Shown: piece after piece, positions 51,701 through 53,535 of the stretch
Layout: each line of letters starts with the position of its first letter
Position numbering within the stretch: the stretch's first letter is position 1
Assembly (NCBI GenBank): GCA_012034805.1
Contig: JAAUOP010000003.1
Coordinates: 6,455 to 70,454, forward strand
DNA from: Synechococcales cyanobacterium CRU_2_2
Lineage (GTDB): Bacteria; Cyanobacteriota; Cyanobacteriia; PCC-9006; JAAUQQ01
DNA length: 64,000 nucleotides
Direction of reading: 5' to 3'
The notes under the pieces: generated by a model
What the model saw: the letters and a program-made list of their open reading frames with translations, nothing else
Told to the model about the DNA's origin: nothing
The model's database searches: none
Position numbers and translations under genes: made by a program

Positions 51701-52573
51701 ATGAAACGACGCAATTTATTGATCAGTACAGGTCTTTTGACCGGGGCTGCGATCGCCCAAACCAGCCGTTCTGCCCTCGCCGAGCAACGCCTCATGAAGG
51801 AGGTTCCTGCAACACTGCCGAAGCCATTGAAGCCAAATTCCAAGCGACTGCGGGGCAAAATGGTGGCGATCGCCCAGGGATTGAACGGTTATCAGGTCAT
51901 GCCGGAGCAAGGCAACGGCCCGTTTCCGACGGTGCTGGTGATCATGGAAGCATTTGGGCTGAATGATCAGATTAAGTCGGTTTGCGATTTGTATGCCAGC
52001 TATGGCTATGGGGCGATCGCACCCGACATCTATGGCGGCACTGTCTTTGCCTACGACCAATTGGGCGGTGCTGTGGCTAAGCTCAAAACGCTGAATGACG
52101 AGGTGGTGGTGAAACAGGTTGGGCAGACCTTGGATTTCATCGGGACGCAACCGAAGCTGCGATCGGATGCCGTCGGAACCGTGGGTTTTTGTATGGGTGG
52201 ACGCTATGCATTTTTGCTCAGCGCGACGTTTGCAGATCGGATCCACAGTGCGGTGTGCTTCTATGGGGGTGGCATTGCCTCGGAGCCAGATCCCTTGGGT
52301 CGTGTTTCGTTGTTGCCGCTGGTGCCTCAGATTCAATCGCCCGTGATGTTGATTTATAGTGCAGAAGACGAGTACATCAACGGCGCAGAACACGCCCGCA
52401 TTACCCAGGCGATGTCGGACAACCGCAAACGCTATGTGCTCTCGGTTGTTCCAAATACCCAGCATGGGTTTATGAATGATGCGCGATCGACCTACAACGA
52501 ATCGGCGGCGATGGAATCTTGGGATATGGCGTTTGGCTTTTTCAAGCGCCACTTGAAAAATCGACCCAGCTAG
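51701..52573 (+). CDS. dienelactone hydrolase family protein (Tat-type signal)
   Basis: MKRRNLLISTGLLTGAAIAQ (twin-Arg). FPTVLVIMEAFGLNDQIKSVCDLYASYGYGAIAPDIY. Nucleophile elbow GFCMGGRYAF. Confidence 0.8.
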   Translation: MKRRNLLISTGLLTGAAIAQTSRSALAEQRLMKEVPATLPKPLKPNSKRLRGKMVAIAQGLNGYQVMPEQGNGPFPTVLVIMEAFGLNDQIKSVCDLYASYGYGAIAPDIYGGTVFAYDQLGGAVAKLKTLNDEVVVKQVGQTLDFIGTQPKLRSDAVGTVGFCMGGRYAFLLSATFADRIHSAVCFYGGGIASEPDPLGRVSLLPLVPQIQSPVMLIYSAEDEYINGAEHARITQAMSDNRKRYVLSVVPNTQHGFMNDARSTYNESAAMESWDMAFGFFKRHLKNRPS

Positions 52574-53052
52574 ATGGCTCTTTCTGCAAAATGGCTGGGT
52601 TCTTTCGTTTGAGCAGTTAATAAACGCCAAGCCTCGCGATAGGAAGCAGAGCGAGGCTTTCGCTGCCGTTTCTCTGTCTCCACAAGATGGATTTCACTCC
52701 CATACCCGATGAAAACTTCGACTGGAAAGATATAAAACACATCCGACTGCTCTATATACGCTAGAGCAAAATCAAAATCAGACGTGCAGTAAGTCTCCCG
52801 AATCATGGTGCGCCGATTCGTTTTAGTGTGGCGATTGTCTGCGACGTAATTTTTAGAAGCCTCGTGAAACCAAGCTGACTTGACCTGAAATTTGATCAAC
52901 TGATGGTGAATATCGAAAACCAGGTCGTAGGCAAGGCGATCGCCCACAGGCCTTAACACGCCCCAGCCTTGCTTGAGCGCATACAAGACAGCTGCTTGTT
53001 CAGCGATATCCCCTTTTAGCTTCGTATCCAACGGCCTTTCCTCGCAGTTCAT
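52570..53052 (-). CDS. PD-(D/E)XK endonuclease of the group-I-intron-associated family (I-Ssp6803I-like), free-standing
   Basis: The 160-aa ORF from ATG 53052 reads MNCEERPLDTKLKGDIAEQAAVLYALKQGWGVLRPVGDRLAYDLVFDIHHQLIKFQVKSAW...FDFALAYIEQSDVFYIFPVEVF. The KGD..E helix, the YDL Asp and the QVK (E/Q-x-K) match this family. The track extension to 53220 reads through a terminator hairpin and tRNA exon 2 and is rejected. Confidence 0.65.
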   Translation of the reverse strand: MNCEERPLDTKLKGDIAEQAAVLYALKQGWGVLRPVGDRLAYDLVFDIHHQLIKFQVKSAWFHEASKNYVADNRHTKTNRRTMIRETYCTSDFDFALAYIEQSDVFYIFPVEVFIGYGSEIHLVETEKRQRKPRSASYREAWRLLTAQTKEPSHFAERAI

Positions 53053-53089
53053 TTTCTTGAGCAGGCTGTTGGAGAAAATATCAAAAAAA

Positions 53090-53130
53090 TCCCAAAAAAT
53101 TAGCGCCAAGGCAATTTGCCTTGGCGCTAA
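53090..53130 (-). terminator. rho-independent terminator of the tRNA-fMet gene
   Basis: A perfect 13-bp inverted repeat TAGCGCCAAGGCA-aat-TGCCTTGGCGCTA (53101-53129) is followed on the minus strand by ATTTTTTGGGATTTTTTTG. It starts 9 nt after the tRNA 3' end. Confidence 0.65.
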
Positions 53131-53138
53131 CCATAAAG

Positions 53139-53494
53139 TGGCGGGGCATGGATTTGAACCATGGACCTTCGGGTTATGCTTACCACTACAGCTTTCGCTG
53201 CCTGAACAGTCGATTCTCAACCTTCAGTTTGGGGTCTGGACTGTCCCTTTACCCGCTGACTAACCCGTAAAACGGTAAATCAGTGAGGGTATCTGCCAAC
53301 CAGTCTCTACACCTTCCCCTCTCAGGGCTTGGCTCGGGATTACCATGCGAAAGGCTTCCCCGAATTTGACAGATTAACACACGCAAGTCACCCTGCATGC
53401 CGCCCAAAAAGTTGAAGTTTTAGCGCGACTTAATCGCGACTTCGATTGCAACTTACTTCGAGCCCGACGAGCTACCAGACTGCTCTACCCCGCG
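53139..53494 (-). tRNA. tRNA-fMet: initiator tRNA-fMet (CAU) interrupted by a group I intron
   Basis: Exon 1 is 53494..53461, CGCGGGGTAGAGCAGTCTGGTAGCTCGTCGGGCT. Exon 2 is 53178..53139, CATAACCCGAAGGTCCATGGTTCAAATCCATGCCCCGCCA. Spliced, they give 74 nt with a cloverleaf fold, a GGG/CCC anticodon stem, a TTCAAAT T-loop and a 1:72 mismatch. CCA is not encoded. Confidence 0.9.
53179..53460 (-). ncRNA. group I intron (IC3-type, ORF-less, 282 nt) in the anticodon loop of tRNA-fMet
   Basis: It follows U33 (CU|), ends with G (..GGTAAG|CAT) and contains GGTGTAGAGACT, ACCCT, GGGTAAAGGGACAGTCCA and AGGCAGCGAAAGCTG. These core blocks closely resemble those of the cyanobacterial tRNA-Leu(UAA)/tRNA-fMet introns. 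Confidence 0.85.
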
Positions 53495-53505
53495 ACGTCT
53501 TCGCC

Positions 53506-53535
53506 ATCATAGCGCAGCTTGGGCATCTTAGGCAA
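53506..53535 (-). promoter_or_regulatory. possible sigma70-type promoter of tRNA-fMet
   Basis: The minus strand reads TTGCCT (53535-53530), then 18 nt, then TATGAT (53511-53506), with 11 nt to the mature 5' end. Motif match only. Confidence 0.3.

Follow-up and report, generated by a model that had tools for sequence, protein, structure and literature searches.

In Synechocystis PCC 6803 the endonuclease I-Ssp6803I is encoded by a 150-aa gene inside a 655-nt group I intron of tRNA-fMet, where the gene is inserted in the P1 loop (PMC1995217; PMC3073962) and overlaps P1/P2 by 61 nt (PMC3073962 Table 1). Introns of tRNA-fMet without an open reading frame (ORF) are known from other cyanobacteria (Scytonema, Dermocarpa, Gloeobacter) (PMC8450103), and collaborative homing has been described for F-CphI with the cyanophage psbA intron and for T4 MobE with the I-TevIII intron (PMC3984707; PMC2790892). 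We analyzed a 64-kb stretch of DNA from Synechococcales cyanobacterium CRU_2_2 (hereafter the window, in whose numbering positions are given), in which a minus-strand initiator tRNA-fMet gene is split by a group I intron lacking an ORF and followed, beyond its terminator, by an I-Ssp6803I-family endonuclease gene. Our reading, given a probability of roughly 0.65, is that this is a native initiator-tRNA locus with a two-part homing element, descended from a Synechocystis-type intron. The evidence points to an endonuclease gene that left its intron, an exit whose traces are present in relatives and which we infer for the window.

The split initiator tRNA gene and its endonuclease neighbor

An earlier note on this DNA, made from the letters alone, had proposed an initiator tRNA-fMet gene in two exons, a 282-nt group I intron without an ORF between them, and an ORF of the I-Ssp6803I family set apart from the ribozyme as a separate unit by a terminator. 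Each of these parts was borne out, giving the following element in the order tRNA, hairpin, gene:

53461-53494, minus strand: tRNA-fMet exon 1, with acceptor arm, D arm and 5' half of the anticodon stem, ending ...GGGCU
53179-53460, minus strand: group I intron without an ORF, 282 nt (Rfam RF00028)
53139-53178, minus strand: tRNA-fMet exon 2, with CAU anticodon, 3' half of the anticodon stem, T arm, acceptor strand and discriminator A
53083-53132, minus strand: intrinsic-terminator-like hairpin plus UUUUUUGGGAUUUUUUU, with a stem of 14-16 bp and a 3-nt loop, found by folding
52570-53031, minus strand: free-standing gene for an I-Ssp6803I-family PD-(D/E)XK endonuclease, with a TTG start, 153 aa and stop TAG at 52572-52570

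Joined, the exons (53494-53461 and 53178-53139) form a 74-nt cloverleaf with anticodon CAU, which ARAGORN calls tRNA-Met(CAT), giving it 75 nt, and draws with an anticodon stem UCGGG/CCCGA that has three G:C pairs in a row. A C.C mismatch leaves position 1:72 unpaired, as in initiators, the discriminator is A, and CCA is not encoded; the predicted spliced product is an initiator-type tRNA-Met(CAU). Run by default on the unspliced 64-kb window, ARAGORN called no tRNA, while its intron mode, which the earlier note had put forward as a check, recovered the same split gene with its 282-nt intron, labeling it tRNA-Ser(CGA) because the program forces the intron to the canonical 37/38 position. Intron-split initiator tRNA genes are thus among those that standard tRNA finders miss or miscall (ARAGORN here; PMC8450103).

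The insert between the exons is a group I intron, its splicing being predicted. Intron_gpI (RF00028), the sole Rfam match in the window, aligns at 53431-53216 (minus strand) over model positions 1-253 with 58.2 bits (E 3.4e-12) against a gathering score of 50; Rfam does not split group I introns into subgroups, and the IC3 label of the earlier note comes from the literature on cyanobacterial tRNA introns. The intron follows a U and ends in G, as all aligned homologous introns also do at their 3' ends, its P1 is formed by exon GCU and intron CGAAG paired with CUUUUUGGGC, and the longest ORF within it is 52 aa. An RNAalifold consensus of 31 related ORF-less introns, the window's included, paired in all 31 the exon-terminal U with a G in a short P1 at the 5' splice site and recovered the anticodon stem, with changes on both sides (compensatory) in 31 of 71 pairs, the long P1-loop hairpin and P2 being rich in them. 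The P1-loop hairpin of the window intron (53415-53441, minus strand) is itself ~15 nt longer than in 30 homologues, the extra stretch holding a direct repeat, AAGTCGCG-ATT-AAGTCGCG.

Folding also found the terminator hairpin, which a simple terminator scan had missed. Its perfect Watson-Crick stem spans 14 bp (53130-53117 with 53113-53100), or 16 bp including wobble pairs, with a U-tract after it, so that the hairpin and U-tract of the earlier note are confirmed and its stem length of 13 bp is corrected; the centroid structure has -26.7 kcal/mol and a z-score of -6.2, and 0 of 200 shuffles folded as well. Beyond the hairpin, the endonuclease gene begins 107 nt past the tRNA 3' end at the TTG at 53031. 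The 160-aa ORF from an ATG at 53052, from which the earlier note had started the protein, does exist as an alternative, and the likely start is the TTG giving 153 aa, since nearly all homologues begin MDTKLKGD, which corresponds to 53031 in the window; a Shine-Dalgarno-like GAGGAAAGG lies ahead of this TTG at 53043-53035.

Family membership of the protein is clear, with 161.3 bits to PF11645 (PDDEXK_5; Pfam cut-off 26.1, E 1.7e-47) and a match to I-Ssp6803I in the PDB (2OST; E 3e-62, residues 10-147 against 4-141, ~68% identity over 138 residues), and an NCBIfam search of the ORF returned no family. All 59 residues invariant in a 29-sequence family alignment are present, among them D43, Q56 and K58, which align with YDL and QVK of 2OST; the D of YDL and QVK we take to be the catalytic residues of Zhao et al. 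2007. At two near-invariant positions the window differs, reading NYVADNRH where the family has NYVVDNRR. Identity is 99% to an annotated 153-aa protein from Synechococcales cyanobacterium RU_4_20, with the TTG start (L in the window, M there) as the sole difference seen, and the neighboring genes recur on a contig of assembly GCA_012032025.1. The NCBI protein name is 'group I intron-associated PD-(D/E)XK endonuclease', so annotators had already noticed the intron association. Such an enzyme is normally encoded within its intron; this gene lies beyond the terminator.

The G+C of the ORF region is 0.475-0.49, against 0.53-0.61 in its flanks. This low value is a better hint of foreign origin than the overlap of the gene's stop with that of the convergent hydrolase gene (CTAG, 52570-52573), which the earlier note had called expected for an inserted cassette; the overlap is real and has no bearing on insertion. 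The window has 114 copies of HIP1 (GCGATCGC) where 1.8 are expected, marking the genome as cyanobacterial. One copy (52936-52943) falls within the endonuclease gene's conserved GDR codons, which would fit a long stay in the genome without being evidence for it.

Layouts and inheritance in related loci

A scan of one genome per species gave 335 loci with relatives, of which the best 80 were examined (loci are designated by L numbers), the query alignment being mostly of the downstream-gene type. Two layouts were found. In type A, found in 62 of the 80, exons 1 and 2 flank an ORF-less intron of 237-299 nt, and exon 2 is followed by a hairpin terminator and then by the endonuclease gene. From the tRNA to the start of the gene there are usually 53-141 nt, with 0.24-2.1 kb inserted in a few loci, and all records are cyanobacterial or unclassified. 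Type B, the Synechocystis layout, accounts for 18 loci and places the gene 17-28 nt past the 5' splice site of an intron of ~645-693 nt. Its hosts are Snowella, one Leptolyngbyaceae genome and metagenome-assembled genomes labeled Caldilineaceae, Nitrospirae, Deltaproteobacteria, Actinomycetes, Armatimonadota, Planctomycetota, Patescibacteria, Methylomirabilota and Emticicia. At 62:18, the ratio leans toward type A by sampling, both because the query was mostly of that type and because the best 80 of 335 loci were kept. Exon 1 of the window is 91-100% identical to that of nearly all 80 loci and 88% identical in three non-cyanobacterial ones, and the hairpin and U-tract recur at the same place in the ~55 type A loci whose spacer was read.

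The earlier note had allowed that the window's layout might be an unusual intermediate, and this does not hold: the downstream gene is a standard arrangement (62 of the best 80 loci), syntenic across many cyanobacteria. It had also named routine unlinking of the endonuclease from tRNA-fMet in relatives as a finding that would speak against it, and among the best 80 loci none was unlinked.

A second sample comprised 120 metagenomic tRNA-fMet introns picked by their intron 3' end and exon 2, independent of any endonuclease:

49 loci: type B, gene within the intron; intact in 22, interrupted by a stop or frameshift in 8, reduced to residues ~100-138 in 15, at contig ends in 4
14 loci: type A, gene downstream; 11 intact, 3 with an internal stop
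24 loci (24 of the 87 classifiable): no endonuclease within at least 700 nt downstream
33 loci: unclassifiable

A free-standing endonuclease gene linked to an ORF-less intron is thus found in the window, in 62 of the 80 genome loci and in 14 metagenomic loci, where it usually lies 98-138 nt after the start of exon 2. Two related contigs, L085 and L104, combine the type A layout with a non-cyanobacterial tRNA (CGCGGAGTGGAGCAGTTGG..) and an intron of 307-310 nt (L085:1471-2004, L104:2648-3181), next to a gene for an M14 peptidase that bears a type IX secretion sorting domain. Because these two stand in a non-cyanobacterial setting, the downstream layout probably arose more than once.

The loci varied in further ways. 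In the Nostocales loci L004, L005, L007, L014, L019, L030 and L072, 0.24-2.1 kb is inserted between terminator and endonuclease gene, and the sequence just before the start codon is unchanged (e.g., TTTTATTTTGCAG|ATG). A small conserved inverted repeat, GCTGATTAGCAGC with variants, lies ~10-30 nt after the terminator and before the endonuclease start in L001, L022, L038, L052, L058 and others, many of them Nostocales and Chroococcidiopsis loci, and could be a regulatory hairpin. Locus L171 (366-1674) has 1.35 kb between the intron-bearing tRNA-fMet and a PDDEXK_5 pseudogene, a spacer that by eye holds a small AbrB/SpoVT-like ORF together with an ORF bearing a LAGLIDADG-like motif (..LIGMILGDAY..), the latter of which could mean that this site also hosts another type of homing endonuclease. 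Just past the intact free-standing copy of L051 lies a partial second copy (4583-4705; residues 1-41, 78% identity), and in the Snowella locus L039 an RNase P RNA (4796-5230; RF00010, 238 bits) lies ~130 nt downstream of the intron-bearing tRNA-fMet.

We evaluated inheritance through the genes around the element, which in the window has the following flanks, the first of them a consensus match alone (one site in the scan against a shuffle mean of 1.5):

53506-53535, minus strand: promoter-like TTGCCT-18 nt-TATGAT, from a consensus scan, ending 11 nt before the tRNA 5' end
53604-54557, minus strand: L-asparaginase II gene (PF06089, E 6.9e-114), upstream of the tRNA; synteny anchor outside the element
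51701-52573, plus strand: dienelactone hydrolase gene (PF01738, E 8.8e-43, profile positions 2-216 of 217), full-length; convergent neighbor outside the element

Genes for RsfS, a CGLD27-like protein and L-asparaginase II precede the window tRNA, and same-strand genes for RsfS, CGLD27 and asparaginase II are found upstream of the tRNA in 53-56 of 62 type A loci (asparaginase II in 56) and in 0 of 18 type B loci; on the other side, 47 type A loci share a conserved gene downstream of the endonuclease gene. The endonuclease and asparaginase II have correlated pairwise distances (Pearson r 0.83, Mantel p 0.001) with mean p-distances of 0.167 and 0.173, the median ratio of nonsynonymous to synonymous substitution rates (dN/dS) is 0.075 among type A genes (n=1039 pairs) versus 0.097 for type B, and 59 of the 62 type A genes are free of internal stops. 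Decay nonetheless occurs, as pseudogenes in L003, L054, L080, L134 and L198, as a remnant of about six codons in L151, and as an empty syntenic site with the same downstream gene in L138. A scan of viral contigs gave no phage-borne copy and one distant partial relative only, hence no sign of a phage vector. Apparently the arrangement is old and has been inherited vertically at a native initiator-tRNA locus, with no recent insertion.

Direction of change, proposed working and rival explanations

In type B loci the endonuclease reading frame runs into the ribozyme, giving the protein a tail (..YRxAWELISQWAAxxETxxRSPVKFGEAxxxVIPSQA) encoded by the 3' strand of the P1-loop helix, the internal guide sequence (IGS, CAATGGGCTG), P2, P3/P4 (CCTGTCAAATTCGGGGAAGCC) and P5/P6 (GGTAATCCCGAGCCAAGC). 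The published position of the PCC 6803 gene, in P1 with 61 nt shared with P1/P2 (PMC3073962), fits this pattern. Many free-standing type A proteins have related tails: ..AWELILQAVSKENCVCSPVSFGEAGF-stop in L007, ..PLKFEEFLGDVMPIQA.. in L034 and ..QWALGDETGLELPLLVEEAVG.. in L009. At the nucleotide level, the last ~80 nt of the gene are collinear with positions 23-96 of the locus's own intron, reaching z-scores of 15.5 in L007, 15.1 in L035 and 15.0 in L073, with a median of 3.05 over 62 loci. An nhmmer profile of the IGS-to-P6 segment of ORF-less introns, run on 63 loci with tRNA and intron masked, gave 23 matches, all at endonuclease 3' ends, 14 of them with E < 0.05 and the best at 5.8e-7, 4.3e-5 and 6.5e-5. 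The ribozyme copy carried by many of the free-standing genes is decayed and covers IGS, P2 and P3, extending in L034 up to P6. The ORF-less introns for their part keep GCTTAnnAGTTnnTTTTGCAnTGGGC in the place of the type B AWELISQWA codons, at equal spacing, and 15 metagenomic introns hold the C-terminal remnant alone (residues ~100-138), which makes them, by their sequence, intermediates of internal deletion.

For Nostocales, these alignments identify the tail similarity as real homology. We conclude from them that the type A layout is the derived one, the gene having presumably been copied behind the tRNA together with a piece of ribozyme and the copy in the intron deleted, because a gene that was never embedded would have no reason to carry IGS, P2 and P3 sequence. 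In many Nostocales loci the 3' arm of the terminator is repeated at the gene's 3' end (GGGTTTTGATCTATTCTG versus GGGTTTTGTTTTATGCTG), a hint of locus duplication that is suggestive only, the repeat being short and the loci not independent. The non-cyanobacterial type B loci L046, L047, L057, L065 and L077 have an endonuclease frame that crosses P3-P6 and ends at a TAG in the conserved core GAAGGTGTAGAGACT, so that ~40 codons are shared by protein and catalytic RNA.

The element might work as follows. The intron would splice between U33 and C34, restoring the CAU anticodon at a ligated junction that would read ...GGGCU-CAUAACCC..., and the free-standing enzyme would recognize and cut the uninterrupted anticodon stem-loop DNA of intron-less tRNA-fMet genes, as I-Ssp6803I, ~68% identical to it, cuts intron-less tRNA-fMet DNA. 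The target of I-Ssp6803I is a 23-bp pseudo-palindrome (PMC3384342), and the window agrees letter for letter with the Synechocystis-type locus L039 in the exon sequence on both sides of the intron, GCTCGTCGGGCT | CATAACCCGAAGGTC; the insertion site may lie within the recognition site of the window enzyme, and there are no intact target sites elsewhere in the window. The resident gene should be immune, since the intron splits the target site. Repair from an intron-bearing copy would transfer the intron together with the endonuclease gene, the latter through co-conversion of ~0.6 kb of 3' flank. This would amount to homing in trans, which might take place from one chromosome copy to another or once foreign DNA has been taken up; we consider such collaborative homing a reasonable mechanism. 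Expression of the enzyme would probably be low and depend on transcripts that read through the tRNA terminator. In L016 the endonuclease ATG directly follows the terminator U-tract, leaving no room for a separate promoter. As for origin, a gene in the P1 loop that read into the ribozyme would have moved behind the tRNA with a ribozyme piece, the intron copy would have been deleted, and the relocated gene would then have been inherited vertically at the syntenic locus under purifying selection.

Several results weigh against this account. The window's own gene, whose tail has diverged (..AWRLLTAQTKEPSHFAERAI-stop), shows no significant ribozyme trace (z 2.0, with the alignment in another register, and no nhmmer match), nor do the gene's closest relatives. 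A test of tandem duplication, made with profiles of exon 1 plus the intron leader, revealed no remnants of these upstream of the free-standing genes, which leaves relocation routes such as tandem duplication hypothetical. Large groupings in the protein tree (neighbor-joining, 300 bootstraps) have 0-3% support, for which reason a single origin is argued from synteny and not from phylogeny. The gene stands behind a strong terminator, and a consensus scan found no promoter-like site between terminator and gene in the window. Finally, homing alone may not explain the strong purifying selection, given that intron-less targets should be rare where the arrangement is fixed and vertically inherited.

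The reverse order of events, which the earlier note had left open as a stage before invasion, would have the endonuclease start out free-standing behind the tRNA, aimed at the insertion site, and enter the intron later along the Bonocora-Shub pathway of mobile-intron formation. For phage systems that pathway has been published as the model (PMC3984707), cyanobacteria contain numerous free-standing copies, and the protein tree with its scant support is compatible with it. It is nevertheless disfavored by the decayed IGS, P2 and P3 sequence (to P6 in L034) at the ends of the free-standing genes of relatives, by GCTTAnnAGTTnnTTTTGCAnTGGGC persisting in the ORF-less introns at the place and spacing of the AWELISQWA codons, and by the graded series of internal gene deletions, and we consider it unlikely. 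An inactive, decaying relic at the window locus itself seems more improbable still, a very long shot: the position behind a terminator without a recognizable promoter, the non-ATG start and the two altered near-invariant positions could suggest one, yet the reading frame is intact, 59 of 59 invariant residues are kept, purifying selection is strong across the group, and several intact homologues also start with TTG or GTG.

Purifying selection beyond what simple homing predicts at a fixed locus leaves room for a role other than spread. The enzyme could have been domesticated, or kept as an addiction module, for instance destroying intron-less tRNA-fMet copies (arising from intron loss or arriving on foreign or phage DNA) or helping splicing in trans. 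The gene is as conserved as its host neighbor and diverges in step with it (r 0.83), its dN/dS of 0.075 is no higher than the 0.097 of intron-borne copies, the locus is syntenic across many cyanobacterial orders, and the HIP1 copy in the ORF is compatible with long residence, if not evidence for it. Against such a role stand the lineages that dispense with the gene (the five pseudogenes, the near-deletion in L151 and the empty site in L138), and related tRNA-fMet introns reportedly self-splice in vitro without protein, in work by Biniszkiewicz from 1994. We give this explanation a fairly small chance. That the endonuclease is a long-lived intron partner, kept as guard, addiction module or splicing helper and not a transient selfish gene, is likewise a tentative idea, permitted by a co-divergence with the neighboring host gene that runs at an equal rate in many cyanobacterial orders. 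The enzyme would in that case destroy any tRNA-fMet gene that is intron-less or foreign, and the homing cycle would have a stable final state, unforeseen by the standard model, in which invasion leads to decay and loss. Vertical persistence under selection as strong as that on a neighboring host gene is awkward for the classic homing cycle and raises the question of how the gene is maintained.

Comparison with known systems

The kinds of component found here are known, namely tRNA-fMet group I introns, the I-Ssp6803I family and collaborative homing. The present case differs in the free-standing position of an I-Ssp6803I-family gene, in the prevalence and vertical persistence of this position in cyanobacteria, and in the ribozyme-derived tails that point to exit from the intron. 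We found no description of the layout or its origin in the literature searched, which did not include the primary I-Ssp6803I papers, so that an earlier mention is possible. The arrangement offers a widespread chromosomal bacterial case of a free-standing homing endonuclease with an ORF-less intron, a pairing hitherto discussed mainly for phage genes, and its presence in culturable Nostoc, Calothrix and Chroococcidiopsis makes it testable there. Through the tails it also provides sequence evidence for direction, the endonuclease gene apparently having left the intron in the reverse of the usual invasion story, and so offers models of how introns and endonucleases come together and part a concrete example. 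Its interest lies mainly in this evolutionary direction and in its persistence; the window locus itself is unexceptional.

The ORF-less introns of Scytonema, Dermocarpa and Gloeobacter share the window's intron lineage and insertion site, and the literature consulted makes no mention of an adjacent endonuclease gene for them. ORF-less tRNA-fMet introns of other cyanobacteria were reportedly a subject of Biniszkiewicz's 1994 work as well. The PCC 6803 system has the same host gene, the same insertion site, a homologous ribozyme with shared core blocks and an endonuclease ~68% identical over 138 residues, and differs in carrying the gene inside the intron, where the window has a 282-nt gene-free intron and the gene behind the tRNA terminator. 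With collaborative homing in phages the window shares a free-standing endonuclease gene beside a group I intron that has no ORF or a defunct one and sits in the presumed target. Those systems, however, have protein-coding phage genes as hosts and HNH-type enzymes and are read as steps toward invasion, whereas the system described here combines a chromosomal tRNA host, a PD-(D/E)XK enzyme, vertical inheritance and sequence traces that point to exit.

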